Assembly: GCA_039714075.1 (NCBI GenBank)
Contig: JBDLKA010000008.1
Coordinates: forward strand, 1 to 62,651
DNA length: 62,651 nt
Direction of reading: 5' to 3'
Origin: Candidatus Krumholzibacteriota bacterium
Lineage (GTDB): Bacteria > Krumholzibacteriota > Krumholzibacteriia > LZORAL124-64-63
In this document: one piece after another, positions 12,285-19,066 of the stretch
How positions within the stretch are numbered: position 1 is the stretch's first letter
How the letters are laid out: each line of letters opens with the position of its first letter
Notes under the pieces: generated by a model
Databases searched by the model: none
Told to the model about the DNA's origin: nothing
Seen by the model: only the letters and a program-made list of their open reading frames with translations
Position numbers and translations under genes: made by a program

Positions 12285-13118
12285 TCAATGACGGGGACCG
12301 AGAACCGGTTTCGCCTGATAGCCAAACCCTAGCAATTCCATCACCTCCACCCTCACCTGGGGCGCAGGGGCGGAGAACTTTCTGCTCGGCGGATCCAGCC
12401 GGGACTCCGACCGGACCCTTTCCGCGGCGAAGGCGAGCCCCAGGAAGGGGATTTCCTCGTGGATCGCGGCGGTGATCTCCCGGGTGGTCGTCTGGATCAT
12501 ACGACCCGCGGGAAGATCGGCGCTCTGGGTGTCTGCCGCCGTCATGATCAACTGATCGCAGAGGTACTGGGTCCCCGCGATGACCCGGGTCGTGGGATCT
12601 TTTCTTTCGGTATGGTCGGGAGTGAATTCCGTATCCAGCGAGGCGGATACCAGGGGGTCGTTGCGCAACTGCTCCCGGGAAATCTTTTCGGGGATTCCGT
12701 CCAGCCACTTTTCGGCCGACACGACGGCATCCAGCAGGTGCCCTTCCCTTGCCAACAGGGTCCGGGACAACCTCAGCCTGGCCCCCTCGCCCGGGACCGG
12801 CACCAGGCTCCCATCGGGCAGCTCGTCCAGGGGCAGCAACTCCACCAGCAAGGTCTCATCGTCGGAACCGCCTTCACGATCCAGACAGACGATCCTGGTC
12901 AGTCCCTCGTCCCGGCGTCCTCCGGCCATGACCTGGGTCCGATAATCCACCCAGGCGCCCTCGGTCATGCGCAGGGGCAGCTCCCGCTGCCGCCACAGGG
13001 TGAATACGTCAAGGGCGCGGACCGGCCGCACCCCCGACGAGATCATGCCGCAGGCCACCCAGAGCAGGGTGAAGCCCAGGACGATCCTAATGTTTGATCT
13101 TTTCCCAGTAGGTCGCAT
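12285..13118 (-). CDS. Hypothetical exported protein; start approximate
   Basis: Signal-like RIVLGFTLLWVACG...VRA. Overlaps the 3' end of the upstream cytochrome gene. Confidence 0.7.
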   Translation of the reverse strand: MRPTGKRSNIRIVLGFTLLWVACGMISSGVRPVRALDVFTLWRQRELPLRMTEGAWVDYRTQVMAGGRRDEGLTRIVCLDREGGSDDETLLVELLPLDELPDGSLVPVPGEGARLRLSRTLLAREGHLLDAVVSAEKWLDGIPEKISREQLRNDPLVSASLDTEFTPDHTERKDPTTRVIAGTQYLCDQLIMTAADTQSADLPAGRMIQTTTREITAAIHEEIPFLGLAFAAERVRSESRLDPPSRKFSAPAPQVRVEVMELLGFGYQAKPVLGPRH

Positions 13119-14460
13119 AGTCGAATTCCGGACTGTTCTTTTGATCGTGACACAGGGTGCAGGAATCCTTGGCCTGGGCGACCCACTTGTTGTCCCGCGC
13201 ATGCTGGCTGCCGTAACCATGGCAGGCTTCGCACTGGACGTTGGCCAGCTTGTTGTACGGTGATTCATCCGAGTAGCCGTTCTTGAACCGGTAACCGGTG
13301 GTGTGGCACGACAGGCATTCCGGCTCGAAACTTTGCCCCTTGTTGCGGATGGTCGCGAAGGCCGACCGGTGGGGAGAATCCAGGTACACCTTCCAGGCAT
13401 CCTCGTGGCAGGCCATACAGGCGCGGTCGCCGAGGTAGGTTTCCTTTTCCGACCCCATGGTCCGCGGATATTCCGCCCGCTTGGCGGTCTTGAACTCCAG
13501 CAGGTCGACCTTGAACTGTTCCACCCGGGCCAGCATCTGTTCGTCGTTGGCGACCTCTTCGTTGAGGGCGGTGATCCCCACATCGATGGCCATGACCCGG
13601 CCGTCCGCATCGTCGATGAAAAGATTCGCCCGGCCGATGTAACGACCTTCGAAAGCCGCCGCGAAAACAGCGGTGTCGTTGATGACCCGCTCGGCGTTGA
13701 TGTTGCGCGACGTGTGCCCGATGACACACATGTCGATTCCCTTGACCTCGTTCAGCAGTTCGCCGGTGGCCTGTTCGCCGAGATGGGCCAGCAGCACGAC
13801 CGAATCGGCCTTTTCCCGCAGCCGGGGCAACAACTCGCGCAGGACCGCCACCGGTTCATCCACCTGGTAGACCTCTTCGGAGGCCGCCATGGAAATGATT
13901 TTCTGCCGGGGATCCAGGACGCTGACGATGCCGATCCTGATGCCGCTTCTTTCCACCACCAGGAACTCGGGCAGAATCAGTTCGCCCGTCTTGCCGGAAC
14001 GCACATTGGCGTTGGTGAAGGGCAGATCGAATTTTTCGATCATTTCCAGCAGGAAAGGCAGCCCGTAGTTGAGGTCCCGCTCGCCCAGGGCGATGGCGTC
14101 GTACCCCAACTCACCGGTCATTTCGGCCAAAAAGGTCGACTGATGTTTTTCGTTCTTGTTCCGGGGACCGAAAAGGTCGCCGCCGTCCACCACCAGCACC
14201 GGCCGCTCTTCACTCCAAACTCCGTCCATAAAGGTGGCCCTCCGGGCCAACCCGCCACGCTTGTTGGATTTTCAGCCGCAGGGTTCGATCTTGCCCTTGA
14301 TGTCGGTGGTGTAGAGCAGAACGAGGTCCTGCCAGGTACCCTCGCCGGCCCGGGCGCCGGCCGGCAGGACAACCGGGGCGATGGCGGAAATCACGAAGGC
14401 CAGTACCAGCGCCAGACTCATCAATCGCAGGGCACCGGTCAGGTCCTTGAGCTTGATCAT
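13087..14460 (-). CDS. UshA-like (5'-nucleotidase-fold) selenoprotein fused to a tetraheme cytochrome c; in-frame UGA (Sec63) at 14272-14274
   Basis: ORFs 14272-14478 and 13087-14250 are in the same frame, separated by one TGA: YTTDIKGKIEPCG*KSNKRGGLARRAT. Also VDGGDLF, LGERDL, four CxxCH motifs and a signal peptide. Confidence 0.88.
14233..14274 (-). promoter_or_regulatory. Candidate bacterial SECIS element
   Basis: Hairpin GG(U)UGGCCC-GGA-GGGCCACC with a bulged U and a G-starting loop 28 nt after the UGA. Confidence 0.7.
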
Positions 14461-14706: not shown

Positions 14707-15000
14707 TTACTTCTGCACCCGGTCCTTCAGGCTCTTGCCCGCCACGAAAGCGGGATACTTGGCCGCGGGAATGACGATCGAAGCGCCGGTCTGCGGGTTG
14801 CGACCCGTCCTTTTCTTGCGCTTGCGACGTTCGAAGGTTCCAAAGCCGGTGATCTGCACCCGATCACCCTTGGACACTGCGTTGGCGATGATCCCTTCTC
14901 GCGGAGAGGTTGAGAAGATGGCATCGACAGCGCGCTTGGACGCGGCCTTGGTCATTCCGGTCTTCTTGGACAGTTGTTCGGTAAGTTCCGTCTTATTCAT
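14707..15000 (-). CDS. hup: HU family DNA-binding protein
   Basis: MNKTEL...VQITGFGTF...GRNPQTG...PAFVAGKSLK, AGGAGG RBS, short STSPREG insertion. Confidence 0.95.
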   Translation of the reverse strand: MNKTELTEQLSKKTGMTKAASKRAVDAIFSTSPREGIIANAVSKGDRVQITGFGTFERRKRKKRTGRNPQTGASIVIPAAKYPAFVAGKSLKDRVQK

Positions 15001-15154
15001 ACATATCACCTCCTTTCAGGGGCCATCAAACCCCGGCCTCAAAGGGATTGTCAACATCTAATTCGAGTATTTCCAGTCCTGGCGGGATAAAATCAAACCC
15101 GGGTTTTTCAGGAATTGGGAAAACGGCATGAGGGCGGGCATCCGGGACCGGTGA

Positions 15155-18100
15155 TCAGAAGACGCCGCCGCCGATTGCGCCGCCGACCGACCCCATGTAA
15201 TCCTCGCGGCCGCGGGCGAATTTCAGGCTGGGAATGGACTTCAGATAGATCCGGAAACCGAACTGCGAATCCAACGAGCTGATGGTGCGGGTGAATTCGA
15301 TCTTCCAGCAGTGAAGGTCCCGGTGCAGGCTGTACTGCTGGCGGGTGGGCATACCCGCGGCCAGGTCGAAGGAGGCCTGGTAACGGAACTGCCATTTCCG
15401 GGTCAGACTTGTGTTCAGGGACAGGTTGCCGGTGGCGCGCTTGGTTCGCGTTTCGTTTGTGTAACTGTATGACATGGATGCATTTACATCGAACGGAATA
15501 TACCGCCCGCCTTCGGTCGGATCCTTTTCATCCGGTCCTTCCTGCCGGCCCGGACGGTTGTAGAAATCGTAGAAACTGCTCTCTTCACCGTCGAAGAGTT
15601 CCTCCTGTTCCGAGGTGTCGATGAAATTGCCGTCTTCATCATATTCCCCGTAACGGTCCTCGGCCTGGAGACTGTCGGCGGCGGCCTGGAGATCGACTCC
15701 CAGCCGGTCGATGGCGCTGTTGCGTTTCTGCTCTTCCATTTCCGCGACGTCGCCCACGTCCAGTTTGCCCGCAAAACTCAGCCCGTAGGTGAACCGCGTG
15801 GACTTCAAGGCCAGGCTATAGGGATCGATGGAATTGCTGACCTTCAATTTCAGATAGCGGCTCTGCCCCGGTTTGACTGTCAAACCGCTGGATATGTCAT
15901 TCCAACGCTCCCCCGACGCTCCCTGGGGATTGTACGAAGTGTTCAGGGACCAGTCGATCACCCCGTCCAGTTTCTTTTCGGTAAAAGTGGTGTCGTTTTC
16001 CTGGCTGACGTATTTGAGGTCGAAACGATTGTCGAACCCCAGCCCGATGGACGACCCGTAGTCCTGGCGGTTCCGCAGCCCCGGCCGGACGTTCCAGGAC
16101 GAGTTGAACCTGGCCGTGTGACGGACCGCGCGGAACCGGCCCACGTTCATGGGAAAAAGGCCGTACAGGGTCGTGCCCAGGGAGGTGCCGAAGGAAAGGC
16201 TGGGCGAGGTTTCCTCTTCGGTGTAGGACGTGTCACGGTACGCCCCGCCGGCAGCCAGATTGGTGTCCGGACCCCAGATCCGGCCCGCCATCTCGTGGCG
16301 CTGCCACCTTTGCGCGGCGCTGGCCGAGAAACTCACGTTGAAAATGGCGACCCGGGGAGGGCGCAGGCTGAGGGACCAGTTCCCGTTGGCCTGATAATCC
16401 CTGGTGTCGGTCAGTTCCCGGCCCGTCTCCGATGACTGGAAGGAATAGCCCTGCGAAAAATAGGTGTTCCGCAGGGCATTTCCTATAAAGCTCCCTTTTT
16501 GACCGCTGCGCAGGGACGGACCCAGGGTCAGCTGTTTGAAATTCAGGGACAGGCTGGGCAGGGTCATGGAATACAGCTGGTTGTCGCTGCCCGGATCGGT
16601 GGGATCCTCGGCGTTGACCCTTTCATCCCGCTTGGCGCTGAGATTGGCGCTCATGAAGGACCAGTTGCGGCTGATGTAGACCGTGGAGTTCATCTGGCCG
16701 CTGACGATGTCCCGGTTGTTGGAGCCCGCCAGGTCGTTGCTGGTCAGTTTGGTCGAGGCCATTTTCACGTCGGCGCGGAATTTGTAATCGTCGAACATGG
16801 TGGGCTGGTTGTGGTTCCAGCGGAACTGCCATTCGCGGGTGGTCCGCCCCTCACCCAGACCCTCCTTGTGGGAATAGTCCAGCCCCCCGTTGAACGCGTA
16901 CCGCTTCACGTAACGGTTCTGGATGCGGAAACCGAAATCCTGACGTTCGTTGTAATCGCCCTCGACCAGGAAATCCATGTAGTCGTTGGTGGCCCAGTAA
17001 TAGCCGAAATCCCTGATGTAACGGCCCTCGCGGCTGGACCAGCCGAAGTCGAACGAGGGGAAGAGGATTCCCGACTGGCGGCCGGACTTGAGGCTCTTGT
17101 AATAGAAGGGCAGCGCGAACACCGGCACATGCCCGATCCGCAGGACCACCGGCGCGGCCACCACCTTGTCCCCCGGCTTCATCTTCATATTGTCGGACCA
17201 GAAATGGTAATGGGGGCCCTCGAGGTCGCAGGAGGTCATCCGGCCGCCGCAGATCTTCATGGTCTGGTCCGGGAACCTCCGGATGCTGTCCCCCTTGTAG
17301 TAGTAATTGTCCATGGTCGTGACCCCGGTTTCGACGGCCGCGGTCTTGTGTTTGAAATTGTAGCCCATGCGCTCGCCGACGATGCTGTCCGCGTCCTCCA
17401 CCAGGGGCTCGCCCTCGGCGTACAGCTCGCGCTCGTCGGTATCCATTTTGATGTGGTCGGCGGTCAGTTTCATGGAACCGAACTGCAGGGAACCCTCGTC
17501 CTGGATTTCCATGGTCCGGTCCAGCATTTCGAAGGCCACTTCGCCACCGGAATAATCGACCTGCTCGGCGTTGGCCAGGAAGTTCAGACCCGATCCGGAG
17601 GTGTCGAAACCGGCGGCCGCCAGGGAATCCAGGGCGGCGGTCAGCAGGGAATCGGCGGCCGCCATCTGGGCGGGTGTCGCACCCAGGGATGCCAGGGTGT
17701 CCGCGGCCGCGACGCTGTCCTCTCCGGACCGGGCCAACTGGTCGGCCAAACGTTTCGAACGCCCCAGCATTTCCCGCATGGCCGCGATCTTGGCGAAGCG
17801 GTAGGTGCCCACCGCGTTGCCCATGACCTTGACCCTTTTGACCTCCTGGTCGCGGAAATTGATGATGATGGTATCGCCGCTGACATCGTTGGTCGCAACC
17901 TCGTCGGTCAGGTCCTGGGGCGTGAACCGGCTGCGGGCGTTGCCGACGACCACGGTGCGGGTGATCTTCGAGTCCTCCATCTCGACGGTGATGGTGTCGC
18001 CCTCGAGGATATCCAGATCCGGCAGGCCCTCGTAGACGGCGGCCAGACTGTCGGGAGCGGTGTCCTCCATGCGGCCGTTGCCCATCACCAGGACTTCGCG

Positions 18101-19066
18101 CAGCTGCCCCTCGAGGTAGAAGAACTCGATCCGGTCGCCCTTCATCACGCTCGAGGCGGCCATGGCCACTTCGGGATCACCGGTCAACACCAGGTGCTCC
18201 TGCCCGAAGGCCACCGCCGTATCGGCCCGGGCCTTGGTCTGGCCCTGGTCGATGCGCACCGAATCAACCATCACCACCCGGTCTTCTTCCCGGTAGAACC
18301 GCATCAGGCCCGCCGTACTGGTCAACGGGCCGCCTTTCTGTTCGCGGCTGGTCAGGACGGGATTGGCATCGACCTCGGCGGTATTGTCGGCGGAGGAAAA
18401 ATTGGCGTGATCCCCGGTGACCAGGTTTTTTGCTCCCGGTTCCATGATGCGCACGTGTCCGAAGGCTTCGCCGTCACCGGATTCGCGATCCTGGGCGATG
18501 GTGTCGCCCCGGACCGAATAATCCGGCGTCACCAGCAGGGCGTCCCCCATCAGCCTGAGAATGCGTCCGTTGTCCCGGGTCTCCCCCCGGCGACTGGTCC
18601 CGATGGTGCCCTCTTCCTCCAGACGAACATTGCCGAAAAAATCCCCCGTGCCGAGGAAGCGGTCGTAGTGGGCCCGGTCGCAGGTCAGAACCGCCCCGAA
18701 CCGGGTCAGGCGGACATTCCCGACAAACTGGTAGTATTCGCGTTCGCGGTAGTAGAAAGCGGTGTCGGATTCGGCTTTCAGGGTGTCCCGGTCGATGTAG
18801 ACGTTCCCGTACATGCAGGAAACTTTTTGGCCGTCGATGACGCGGTCCACATAGCGGTCGGCCAGGCCCCGCGTTGACGGACGGGGCGCCCGTTTTTCGG
18901 ACACGTCATCCTGGGCGTGGGCGGGGTGGGGAATTTCCAGAATACGGCCGGCGCCCAGGACGGCCGCCACGGCCACCGCGGGCAGCAGGACCCCACGGAC
19001 AAAACCCCGGCCGGCCCGCCGCGTCGGCGTGCCGTGATCGGGAGAGTTGCCGCCGGTCCCTTTCAT
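15155..19066 (-). CDS. lptD: LPS-assembly protein LptD with an extended multi-OstA N-terminus, 1303 aa
   Basis: TSCDLEGPHYHF, PVFALPF, RQSGILFP, GYYWATNDYMD and RDLHCW motifs. Repeated OstA-like beta-jellyroll segments. Confidence 0.88.
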   Translation of the reverse strand: MKGTGGNSPDHGTPTRRAGRGFVRGVLLPAVAVAAVLGAGRILEIPHPAHAQDDVSEKRAPRPSTRGLADRYVDRVIDGQKVSCMYGNVYIDRDTLKAESDTAFYYREREYYQFVGNVRLTRFGAVLTCDRAHYDRFLGTGDFFGNVRLEEEGTIGTSRRGETRDNGRILRLMGDALLVTPDYSVRGDTIAQDRESGDGEAFGHVRIMEPGAKNLVTGDHANFSSADNTAEVDANPVLTSREQKGGPLTSTAGLMRFYREEDRVVMVDSVRIDQGQTKARADTAVAFGQEHLVLTGDPEVAMAASSVMKGDRIEFFYLEGQLREVLVMGNGRMEDTAPDSLAAVYEGLPDLDILEGDTITVEMEDSKITRTVVVGNARSRFTPQDLTDEVATNDVSGDTIIINFRDQEVKRVKVMGNAVGTYRFAKIAAMREMLGRSKRLADQLARSGEDSVAAADTLASLGATPAQMAAADSLLTAALDSLAAAGFDTSGSGLNFLANAEQVDYSGGEVAFEMLDRTMEIQDEGSLQFGSMKLTADHIKMDTDERELYAEGEPLVEDADSIVGERMGYNFKHKTAAVETGVTTMDNYYYKGDSIRRFPDQTMKICGGRMTSCDLEGPHYHFWSDNMKMKPGDKVVAAPVVLRIGHVPVFALPFYYKSLKSGRQSGILFPSFDFGWSSREGRYIRDFGYYWATNDYMDFLVEGDYNERQDFGFRIQNRYVKRYAFNGGLDYSHKEGLGEGRTTREWQFRWNHNQPTMFDDYKFRADVKMASTKLTSNDLAGSNNRDIVSGQMNSTVYISRNWSFMSANLSAKRDERVNAEDPTDPGSDNQLYSMTLPSLSLNFKQLTLGPSLRSGQKGSFIGNALRNTYFSQGYSFQSSETGRELTDTRDYQANGNWSLSLRPPRVAIFNVSFSASAAQRWQRHEMAGRIWGPDTNLAAGGAYRDTSYTEEETSPSLSFGTSLGTTLYGLFPMNVGRFRAVRHTARFNSSWNVRPGLRNRQDYGSSIGLGFDNRFDLKYVSQENDTTFTEKKLDGVIDWSLNTSYNPQGASGERWNDISSGLTVKPGQSRYLKLKVSNSIDPYSLALKSTRFTYGLSFAGKLDVGDVAEMEEQKRNSAIDRLGVDLQAAADSLQAEDRYGEYDEDGNFIDTSEQEELFDGEESSFYDFYNRPGRQEGPDEKDPTEGGRYIPFDVNASMSYSYTNETRTKRATGNLSLNTSLTRKWQFRYQASFDLAAGMPTRQQYSLHRDLHCWKIEFTRTISSLDSQFGFRIYLKSIPSLKFARGREDYMGSVGGAIGGGVF

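Follow-up and report, generated by a model that had tools for sequence, protein, structure and literature searches.

The UshA-like CxU selenoprotein family (COG0737) was catalogued by Zhang and Gladyshev (2008; PMC2398784) and has been relisted in two further papers (PMC9312934; PMC13188914); in the portions of these three sources available to us the family is given without a function, and no heme domain is mentioned. The family has thus been present in lists since 2008, and the NCBIfam model that covers it, NF041198 “UshA-like (seleno)protein,” already includes a heme tail. Our literature search, in which subscription journals lay outside the scope, found nothing on the function of the family or its heme fusion, and nothing on selenocysteine in Krumholzibacteriota.

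Several described systems can be compared with the protein reported here. Members of NF041198 have in common with it the PCGU motif, an alternation of Sec and Cys in one and the same column, a 5'-nucleotidase-like N-domain and a multiheme tail. With E. coli UshA, human CD73 and the snake-venom 5'-nucleotidase it shares the N-domain fold as well as the helix between the domains (Foldseek E about 1e-24 to 1e-20), and with 5'-nucleotidases the start of the GGxARRAT helix and the GD motif; in alignment, the eukaryotic 5'-nucleotidases also have cysteines in the loop after DxH. Unlike these enzymes, it has DIK, GERD, Sec, and hemes in place of the nucleotide-binding C-domain. SoxB, a dimanganese member of the 5'-nucleotidase family, is likewise periplasmic and shows a distant sequence relation in the N-domain (TIGR04486, 1.4e-21; SoxB chains, 1.1e-16), but its metal ligands are only partly kept in the selenoprotein, and SoxB is not known to have a heme domain or Sec. 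Cytochrome c554 of Nitrosomonas (PF13435; PDB 1bvb, 1ft5, 1ft6) has the same four-heme module; c554 is a stand-alone electron carrier, whereas in the selenoprotein it follows a catalytic-type domain within one fused chain. The UshA-like (seleno)protein family 2 (NF049981) also has a Sec-containing 5'-nucleotidase-like N-domain, yet it differs in its CxxU motif, its 262-position profile and the lack of a heme tail.

The window analyzed here is a stretch of 62,651 nucleotides from a Candidatus Krumholzibacteriota bacterium (contig JBDLKA010000008.1), to which all coordinates refer. A first-pass annotation, made from the letters alone, had placed at 13087..14460 a hidden selenoprotein of 457 aa, with a signal peptide and a frame running through an in-frame TGA. 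These coordinates are correct, the strand, which had been left unstated, is the minus strand, and translation of that strand confirmed the frame: it starts with ATG at 14460, ends with the stop TAG at 13089-13087, contains a single in-frame TGA at 14274-14272, and has 457 codons before the stop, hence 457 residues if the TGA at codon 63 is Sec. The context of codon 63 on the minus strand is EPCG-TGA-KSNKRGGLARRAT, translated as YTTDIKGKIEPCG-U-KSNKRGGLARRATFMDG, which puts E-P-C-G-U at residues 59-63, behind the first of the metallophosphoesterase motifs.

With U read as C, the protein scored 278.2 bits against NF041198, the motif of which is PCGU and the curated cut-off of which is 275, and the proposed membership in the UshA-like CxU family therefore stands, by 3 bits. 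A six-frame search with the same model gave 153.4 plus 112 bits flanking an unmatched stretch, the 112 bits coming from profile positions 353-519 matched to 13114-13578 of the window, the heme tail. Positions 270-352 of the 519 (about 80) have no counterpart in this protein, and the linker region is therefore shorter in this lineage. The locus is an unannotated member of a catalogued family, truncated by gene callers, and is not new in kind; the family is large, with at least 530 loci confirmed when one genome per species is counted. We put at roughly 0.7 the explanation that we favor as a whole, which includes a redox role proposed below: that the locus encodes an exported, periplasmic selenoprotein of the NF041198 family.

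That the UGA at codon 63 (14272..14274, minus strand; motif P-C-G-U) is evidently decoded as Sec, with help from a hairpin that lies downstream within the coding sequence, follows from comparison of many genomes, and we are close to certain that this is a real selenoprotein of the UshA-like family. PCG-TGA-K was found in frame in 29 of 30 orthologous loci, the remaining locus being cut by a contig end; in the same 29 the consensus is D[IV]KGK[IV][ED]PCG-TGA-[KR], and the protein is conserved on both sides of it in one frame. Across the phylum, 150 of 151 sampled genomes have a match to the gene (E <= 1e-30), and nearly all of the full-length phylum matches among those listed contain exactly one TGA. 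The first-pass annotation had pointed to homologues with Cys or TGA at this codon and to the sel genes as tests of its proposal, and the outcome of both agrees with it. Homologues free of TGA have Cys in the codon-63 column (including P0041, L066-L069, L072 and L073), and in a set of 81 family members drawn from many phyla this position is TGA in 54, Cys in 23 and another residue or a gap in four, so that 77 have TGA or Cys. The genome encodes selA (448.1 bits), selB (327.8), selD (363.8) and tRNA-Sec (68.5), all above their cut-offs. The selD gene of this genome itself contains one TGA. A sequencing error, which had also been raised, is not supported: contigs from two sequencing runs, one of them from a variant strain in a second sample, do not differ at the TGA of codon 63, and the variant strain has 20 SNPs in the frame (15 synonymous and five nonsynonymous), two of the synonymous ones lying upstream of the TGA.

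The bSECIS-like hairpin occupies 14232..14252 (minus strand), overlaps the codons for G-L-A-R-R-A-T, and has a stem of 9 bp that contains a single U.C mismatch, with GGA as the apical loop. A hairpin with this loop and a spacing of 28 nt from the UGA had been noted at first reading; it is real, and loop and spacing are as given, but what was then called a bulged U is an in-stem U.C mismatch in the register that covaries. Bacterial SECIS elements are stem-loops found shortly 3' of the UGA with a G in the apical loop, and the present hairpin agrees with this in its covarying stem, its apical loop of GGA or GGC across orthologues, and its 28-nt spacing from UGA to loop. In the alignment of 29 orthologues, 93.9% of 261 cells are paired; shifting the 3' arm by 1-3 columns lowers pairing to at most 59%, and none of 500 shuffles matched the observed pairing or covariation score. 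Seventeen cells are altered on both sides, with compensatory changes at synonymous sites, as in pair 33-51 (GC 22, AU 7) and pair 36-48 (GC 14, GU 11, UG 3, AU 1); column pair 34-50 has CG in 8, GC in 5, UA in 1 and other combinations in 15. Codon use points the same way: where sequences code A-R-R at the stem, the codons are GCC-CGG-[AC]GG in 67 of 75 Sec forms versus 0 of 5 Cys forms. Folding of the single 101-nt sequence was not significant (z = 0.26), and RNAalifold on the alignment returned the upper six pairs only. The minimum free energy of the 57 nt 3' of the codon did not distinguish the Sec forms from the Cys forms (mean -20.5 kcal/mol in both), and an Rfam search gave no SECIS family and two matches at chance level.

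Gene callers were expected to split such a gene, and they have done so: the database protein of this locus has 380 aa and begins at M78, and 119 of 120 relatives among the matches listed are N-terminally short (343-395 aa). Public calls of this kind, together with the non-significant single-sequence fold after the UGA, are what speaks for the TGA being a true stop or an error, leaving either a 62-aa exported peptide and a cytochrome of ~380 aa or a pseudogene. We find this scarcely credible, as 29 of 30 loci keep frame and sequence through the TGA, Cys occupies the site in homologues, the hairpin covaries and constrains codon use, the genome has the full sel machinery, and the variant strain keeps the TGA with mostly synonymous SNPs on both sides of it. 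The downstream part alone would also be without a signal peptide, and c-type heme attachment requires export. The signal peptide (14347..14460, minus strand) covers about residues 1-38 and ends in AGARA, before GEG, with the cleavage site judged by eye; pLDDT is below 50 in this stretch of the model. Four matches to Cytochrom_C_asm were found in the genome. For annotation this means that the gene model here and hundreds of public relatives are truncated at the UGA, the correct model at this locus being one 457-aa selenoprotein that includes its signal peptide.

The mature protein begins with a remodelled 5'-nucleotidase/metallophosphoesterase N-domain at about residues 43-300 (13561..14334, minus strand). 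In Foldseek the model matched 5'-nucleotidases best (E = 2.9e-24, about 310 aligned columns), a profile search matched a solved 5'-nucleotidase at 4.7e-36, and pLDDT in the domain is mostly above 90; with C61-G-U63 read directly from the translation, a Cys-Gly-Sec motif on this fold, as first proposed, is well founded. Landmarks along the domain are D53-I-K55, C61-G-U63, GG69-70, R73, R74, G94-D95, G126-E-R-D129, N152, H226 and G248-H249. In profile alignment to solved 5'-nucleotidases DIK falls on NDVH and GERD (126-129) on GNHE, in agreement with the altered metal motifs reported at first reading (DIK for DxH, GERD for GNHE). The metallophosphoesterase motifs are present as DIK, GD, GERD, H226 and GHTS; the domain keeps the fold and has lost residues required for phosphoester hydrolysis, namely the His of DxH and the Asn-His of GNHE.

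A long linker helix at residues 307-329 (13474..13542, minus strand; DSSP on the model) is the counterpart of the 5'-nucleotidase interdomain helix, and the 5'-nucleotidase alignments extend through it. Behind it, residues 344-457 (13090..13431, minus strand) form a cytochrome c554-like tetraheme domain, which scores 49.3 bits against PF13435 (gathering cut-off 20.8) and matches the c554 chain 1bvb_A at 5e-19 in the profile search; the model of this domain has low confidence (pLDDT 48-80). Its four CxxCH motifs, all on the minus strand, are C348-M-A-C-H352 (13405..13419), C382-L-S-C-H386 (13303..13317), C410-E-A-C-H414 (13219..13233) and C434-T-L-C-H438 (13147..13161), and these, with PF13435 above its cut-off, bear out the proposed fusion to a tetraheme module. 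The first motif is invariant in 40/40 and 81/81 sequences, the second and third are supported by the motif itself and the alignments, and the fourth is present in 80 of 81 sequences with one gap. The tetraheme domain occupies the place of the 5'-nucleotidase C-terminal substrate-binding domain, and a Pfam search found no 5'-nucleotidase C-domain in the protein; judged by its motifs and profile matches, the nucleotide-binding C-domain has been replaced by a c554-like module with four predicted c-type heme sites. A hydrolase fold turned in this way into a heme-wired Sec/Cys redox module would be a striking case.

Three other identities were considered and rejected. An active 5'-nucleotidase of the UshA type (COG0737) does not fit a protein in which DxH, GNHE and GHxH are not intact and the C-terminal substrate-binding domain is absent. 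The SoxB thiosulfohydrolase model (TIGR04486) gave 76.5 bits against a cut-off of 550, and family 2 of the UshA-like (seleno)proteins (NF049981) gave 47.2 bits against a cut-off of 140.

Conservation across the 81 family members falls on the CGU loop and its surroundings (C61 in 71, G62 in 76, U or C63 in 77, G69 in 79, G70 in 76, R73 in 78, R74 in 73 and N152 in 73) and on the hemes, the four CxxCH motifs and H364/H420 being present in 80-81 of the 81, where 80 loci had been chosen with patterns on heme motifs 2 and 3 and the invariance of these two is partly by construction. The ligand set D95/E127/H226/H249, in contrast, is kept together in 41 members and lost together in 19. Because Cys61, Sec/Cys63 and the hemes persist across both of these metal-site subtypes, including where the ligand set is lost, CG[U/C] and the hemes are the conserved core of the family; the block-wise retention or loss of the remaining metal ligands against this constant background is new here.

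The first-pass annotation had suggested a different center, in which Cys61 and Sec63 ligate a metal in a remodelled dimetal site, replacing the DxH His, so that the metal center and not the selenol is the catalytic site wired to the hemes. The protein at this locus does keep D53, D95, E127, H226 and H249, with the CGU loop immediately after the first metal motif; that 41 of 81 members retain D95/E127/H226/H249 together points to selection acting on a site, and Sec use tracks the set (37 Sec to four Cys among members that keep it, six Sec to 13 Cys among those that have lost all of it, kin not being independent). Yet the 19 members without all four ligands still keep CG[U/C] and the hemes, so that metal is not the essential element of the family; two families of the phylum (L059 and L074) have lost D53, D95, H226 and/or H249 and kept PCGU, and only 6 of 81 members have His at position 55. 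We regard metal ligation by Cys61 and Sec63 as unlikely to be the answer: this lineage may have a Cys/Sec-ligated metal center, yet the family's conserved core does not include one. The broader proposal that a metal at D53/D95/E127/H226/H249 also takes part in this lineage is one we would entertain tentatively, as less likely than not. Retention of the full ligand set, here and in 41 of the 81 relatives, is equally compatible with catalysis that depends on a metal and with chemistry of thiol and selenol alone.

Under the explanation that we favor, the protein would be a redox enzyme and not a nucleotidase. Reactivity would reside in the Cys61-Gly-Sec63 loop, which follows closely on what was once the first metal motif; this center would act as a selenolate or cycle as a selenenylsulfide, and would trade electrons with the heme chain and thence with periplasmic or respiratory carriers. 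That the CGU motif and the hemes form a catalytic redox unit seems to us probable. On the substrate we are far less confident: a protein thiol, such as that of a DsbA-like partner, is improbable taken alone, and the odds of a small sulfur, selenium or peroxide substrate are comparable.

The neighborhood of the gene gives little direction within the window, where HU, LptD, a LolA-like ORF and a DEDD exonuclease are found, housekeeping and envelope genes with no redox hint. Directly downstream lies an ORF of 277 aa with a lipoprotein-like N-terminus (12285..13118, minus strand); its first 32 nt lie within the 3' end of the selenoprotein gene, which makes it a possible operon partner. It follows the gene in 27 of 29 other loci of the same family, both misses being at or near a contig end, and has weak matches in 2 of 16 distant loci. 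Searches of Pfam and NCBIfam assigned it to no family, and its matches in the ESM Atlas were all to clusters without a name. Its model (pLDDT 83.6) has LolA3 as best Foldseek match (E = 2.2e-5, TM 0.26-0.38), a weak lead to a fold that may be of the LolA/LolB/RseB kind.

In distant lineages the neighbors are more suggestive. In five distant loci, which include both metal-site subtypes and pairs from Nitrospinota and Thermodesulfobacteriota, the gene is followed immediately and on the same strand by a DsbA-like one (gaps of 18-244 nt), and directly upstream in four more are DsbD_TM+Trx (one), a DsbH-type thioredoxin domain (one) and MauE/DoxX (two); the five genomes with an adjoining DsbA-like gene gave no match to DsbB or VKOR. 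Such distant lineages, with the gene beside DsbA-, DsbD- or MauE-type genes in genomes without DsbB or VKOR, are a further new observation. They speak for a cytochrome-linked periplasmic thiol oxidoreductase, in which CG[U/C] would undergo disulfide or selenenylsulfide exchange with exported proteins, DsbA-like or other, pass electrons to or from the heme chain, and stand in for DsbB/VKOR. The distribution of the genes is in keeping with this: DsbB occurs in 0 and VKOR in 3 of the 151 phylum genomes, against 150 for the selenoprotein gene, and among 50 carriers outside the phylum a DsbA-like gene is present in 25, DsbB in only one and VKOR in six, 19 of the 25 being without both (genomes reached through their loci, whatever their completeness). 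The same reading is opposed by the lack of any DsbA-like match (PF01323, PF13462) in this genome, which is 92% complete, and in most of its phylum; as only 16 of 151 phylum genomes have a DsbA-like gene, a role as DsbA oxidase is not general here. Nor is the complementarity significant in Acidobacteriota, where among 101 genomes DsbB or VKOR is found in 4 of 19 carriers versus 33 of 82 non-carriers (Fisher p = 0.19), and in the neighbor scan, which covered 80 loci and 87 of 115 nearest ORFs, most neighbors are unrelated housekeeping genes. We consider a thiol oxidoreductase of this kind improbable. By the Acidobacteriota counts, lack of DsbB/VKOR is not specific to carriers. A related reading, in which the CGU loop is a selenenylsulfide switch with a four-heme wire that couples two-electron thiol/disulfide chemistry of the periplasm to one-electron respiratory carriers, and supplies the missing oxidant or reductant of DsbA-like and other envelope proteins where DsbB or VKOR is lacking, strikes us as decidedly improbable; if true, it would explain a near-universal core gene of this phylum beside genes of envelope biogenesis (LptD and the LolA-like ORF).

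The heme ligands bear on another possibility. Conserved extra histidines number only three (H364, H420 and H457) for four hemes, and one heme is therefore without a conserved His sixth ligand, which is also new here. In c554 one heme is five-coordinate, and SoxAX and TsdA have His/Cys-ligated hemes. With these precedents, and with an N-domain related to SoxB, the protein could be thought to act in inorganic sulfur, selenium or peroxide chemistry, for example in thiosulfate/tetrathionate or polysulfide turnover like that of enzymes with a Cys-ligated heme, Sec63 then lying close to, or bound to, the heme without a conserved sixth ligand, or as a heme-fed selenol peroxidase. The SoxB score far below its cut-off argues otherwise, as does the lack of sox, dsr, ttr or comparable genes next to it in the scanned loci, and a near-universal single-copy gene beside housekeeping genes suggests a core function and not a substrate-specific one; we judge this reading quite unlikely. 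The habitat is on its side: the samples listed as containing this stretch, among which there are no RNA datasets, are marine, cold-seep and sediment metagenomes.

The gene at 13087..14460 on the minus strand forms a single frame of 457 codons, from ATG 14460 to TAG 13089-13087, and its sole interruption is an in-frame TGA at codon 63 (14274-14272, minus strand). The product begins with a signal-peptide-like N-terminus (cleavage region AGARA|GEG), downstream of which the residues around the TGA read LVLLYTTDIKGKIEPCG-U-KSNKRGGLARRAT, and its C-terminal part carries four CxxCH heme motifs at residues 348, 382, 410 and 434. Translation table 11 yields two ORFs, one of 62 codons from ATG 14460 (listed as 68 aa, from an upstream GTG) and one of 387 aa; the database protein has 380 aa and begins at M78, and 119 of the 120 database relatives listed are N-terminally short (343-395 aa). 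The first-pass annotation had described the frame, the heme motifs and the splitting by standard gene callers correctly, and 13087..14460 appears to be a genuine, mis-called selenoprotein.

Five independent lines of sequence evidence identify the TGA as a selenocysteine codon, as had been proposed: its conservation, homologues with Cys, a downstream hairpin, the sel machinery, and an unchanged TGA in a variant strain. Six-frame searching gave a protein match at E <= 1e-30 in 150 of the 151 genomes of the phylum, with exactly one TGA in nearly all listed full-length matches; 29 of the 30 best loci hold D[IV]KGK[IV][ED]PCG-TGA-[KR]…GG[LV]ARR in one frame, and the thirtieth, cut by the end of its contig, starts only at residue 68. 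A database relative without the stop (P0041) has Cys at the Sec column, ECGCKGHPRGGLARRAT, as do paralogues or distant members at loci L066-L069, L072 and L073; across 81 members of many phyla the column holds TGA in 54, Cys in 23 and another residue or a gap in 4. The organism's own genome encodes selA, selB, selD and tRNA-Sec, all above cut-offs, together with cytochrome c assembly proteins. A sequencing error is ruled out by contigs from two runs of one study, the first possibly the source sample: codon 63 is TGA in both, and one run represents a variant strain that differs in 21 places along the compared stretch, 20 of them inside the frame (15 synonymous, two of these upstream of the TGA, and 5 not). 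The selD gene (L010, G000:C31:20863-21777, minus strand) also has one in-frame TGA, so the organism's selenophosphate synthetase is probably a selenoprotein as well.

A covarying, SECIS-like hairpin has its GG loop 28 nt past the UGA: in an alignment of 29 orthologous stretches its stem has 9 bp and its loop is GGA or GGC, with pairing in 93.9% of 261 cells versus 32-59% with the 3' arm slid. Three pairs are altered on both sides (columns 33-51: GC 22, AU 7), and for pairing, number of double changes and covariation score alike, 0 of 500 shuffles came up to the observed value; because columns 33 and 51 both fall on third codon positions, protein selection does not account for the covariation. 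Codon choice was checked as a control: A-R-R is written GCC-CGG-[AC]GG, which forms the stem top and GG loop, in 67 of 75 distinct Sec forms versus 0 of 5 Cys forms, the Cys set being small. The hairpin first reported is real in its GGA loop and spacing, its "bulged U" being better described as a U.C mismatch within the stem.

The gene is a member of an already catalogued selenoprotein family, and new as a member only. It scores 278.2 bits against NCBIfam NF041198, "UshA-like (seleno)protein" (UshA_like_PCGU; curated cut-off 275), which upholds the earlier reference to a known UshA-like CxU family; in the six-frame search the profile aligns at positions 13-269 to the N-domain and at 353-519 to the heme tail (112 bits), and the fusion therefore belongs to the curated family and is not peculiar to this gene. 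"COG0737, UshA-like, CxU" appears with 76 Sec sequences in the 2008 ocean-metagenome selenoproteome (PMC2398784) and is tabulated again in two later reviews (PMC9312934, PMC13188914), the 2026 one citing NF041198; the passages on the family in these three papers state no function for it. Scanning one genome per species, we found at least 530 loci encoding a relative, in Krumholzibacteriota, Nitrospinota, Acidobacteriota, Planctomycetota, Latescibacterota, Thermodesulfobacteriota, Brocadiaceae and others. In many genomes from other families of the phylum (e.g., G129:C161:9212-10531 and G022:C71:8700-9947, as genome:contig) a copy with TGA is accompanied by a TGA-free one, and the TGA-free copies inspected (L066, L067, L073) have the motif SCGC. 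Thirteen Acidobacteriota genomes hold N-domain-only relatives with a single TGA (e.g., G289:C1:1009502-1010347, G268:C124:6581-7459), spanning profile positions ~4-290 in ORFs of ~310-460 aa, one of which also has a TAA; these are heme-less UshA-like selenoproteins, perhaps "family 2" (NF049981).

The AlphaFold model (mean pLDDT 82.8; N-domain mostly > 90, heme domain 48-80) resembles 5'-nucleotidases across ~310 columns, interdomain helix included, and a profile search of solved chains matched 5'-nucleotidases (up to 4.7e-36), c554 (5e-19) and SoxB (1.1e-16), in agreement with the proposed fusion of a 5'-nucleotidase-like domain to a four-heme module. The likeness lies in the N-domain fold and interdomain helix, whereas a heme module stands at the place of the C-domain; model and matches therefore indicate that it replaces the domain bringing the nucleotide to the metal site. 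The metal-site motifs are altered as first noted, with DIK for DxH and GERD for GNHE; what survives is GD, H226 and, of GHxH, the first His. The usual phosphoester hydrolysis seems unlikely for this protein.

Conservation was counted over 80 kept loci plus this gene: C61 is conserved in 71/81, G62 in 76/81, U/C63 in 77/81, G69 in 79/81, G70 in 76/81, R73 in 78/81, R74 in 73/81, G94 in 78/81, N152 in 73/81, H457 in 73/81, and the four CxxCH, H364 and H420 in 80-81/81. Two heme motifs were search patterns of the 530-locus scan and their invariance here is partly by construction, although both are also invariant in an independent 40-sequence alignment of the phylum. The former metal ligands are far less constant (D53 41/81, D95 51/81, E127 48/81, H226 49/81, H249 47/81), the block D95/E127/H226/H249 being complete in 41/81 members and wholly absent in 19/81; all the old positions are kept in this protein. 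The constant core of the family is therefore CG[U/C] plus four hemes, and the residual metal site seems to be an addition that depends on the lineage, one that this lineage keeps. Only three extra histidines are conserved for four hemes, which leaves one heme with no conserved sixth-ligand His. Some lineages have lost the Cys that stands two positions ahead of Sec and read PAG-U or AFG-U instead (L064 and L065, from phylum families f4 and f7, and L095, L105, L112, L130 and L135), so not every member of the family can form a Cys-Sec selenenylsulfide.

The analysis establishes how the UGA is decoded, the fold, the family, which positions are conserved and the gene context, whereas all of the chemistry is what we infer. 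Most likely, the protein would work as a redox enzyme in the periplasm, with a former nucleotidase scaffold holding a Cys61-Gly-Sec63 centre that passes electrons to or from the four-heme wire, possibly assisted in this lineage by the residual metal site. Candidate substrates would be thiols of proteins, or else small sulfur or selenium compounds or peroxides.

The window and the same taxonomic family share the order LptD – HU – selenoprotein – 277-aa ORF – DEDD exonuclease. Upstream lie an LptD-like protein of 1303 aa (LptD_2, LptD_N; 15155-19066, minus strand) and an HU-type DNA-binding protein (14707-15009, minus strand); the first 32 nt of the 277-aa ORF (12285-13118, minus strand) lie over the 3' end of the selenoprotein gene. 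This ORF keeps its downstream place throughout the taxonomic family, and weakly in two other families; it has a lipoprotein-like N-terminus and nearly invariant C78 and C187, and matched no Pfam or NCBIfam family. Its confident model (pLDDT 83.6) best matches LolA/LolB/RseB-type structures at TM of only 0.26-0.38, a weak match that makes such kinship a possible lead. HU adjoins the selenoprotein gene in 10/16 distant loci and LptD_2 in 4 further loci. In distant phyla, 28 of the 115 nearest flanking ORFs were set aside by eye because they were short, lay across the start of the gene or were distant from it; the 87 scanned are mostly housekeeping genes (RadA, DciA, Maf, LptD, signal peptidase, PHP).

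At five distant loci (L097, L119, L141, L145, L150), spanning both ligand-keeping and ligand-losing subtypes, a DsbA-like gene lies immediately 3' on the same strand, and immediately upstream are DsbD_TM+thioredoxin (L104), a DsbH-type thioredoxin domain (L119) and MauE/DoxX (L122, L144). The lead, one of gene adjacency only, is that the CG[U/C] centre might engage in disulfide or selenenylsulfide exchange with DsbA-like or other exported proteins, replacing DsbB/VKOR. DsbB and VKOR gave 0 matches each in the five genomes with the adjoining gene, and 0/151 and 3/151 (2 over cut-off) in the window's phylum; outside it, 50 carriers, counted irrespective of genome completeness, include 25 with DsbA-like proteins, 1 with DsbB and 6 with VKOR, and 19 of those 25 have neither. 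The DsbA-like Thioredoxin_4 domain, however, occurs in only 16/151 genomes of the phylum, and the organism's own genome (92% complete) has no DsbA, DsbB or VKOR match; because the phylum is mostly without DsbA, such a role cannot be general there. Our control comprised 101 Acidobacteriota genomes, 19 with the full two-domain architecture (one as a partial match), and included two unpublished genomes (G223 and G248, both non-carriers without DsbB/VKOR, which bear on this tally only). DsbB or VKOR was found in 4/19 carriers versus 33/82 non-carriers (odds ratio 0.40, Fisher p = 0.19, kin not being independent), a difference of the expected sign but not significant, and most non-carriers likewise are without both. 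Several Thioredoxin_4 matches of carrier genomes have one in-frame TGA (e.g., G181:C45:8967-9395, G156:C24:48655-49128); they would represent DsbA-like proteins in Sec form, a family already among the selenoproteins of PMC2398784.
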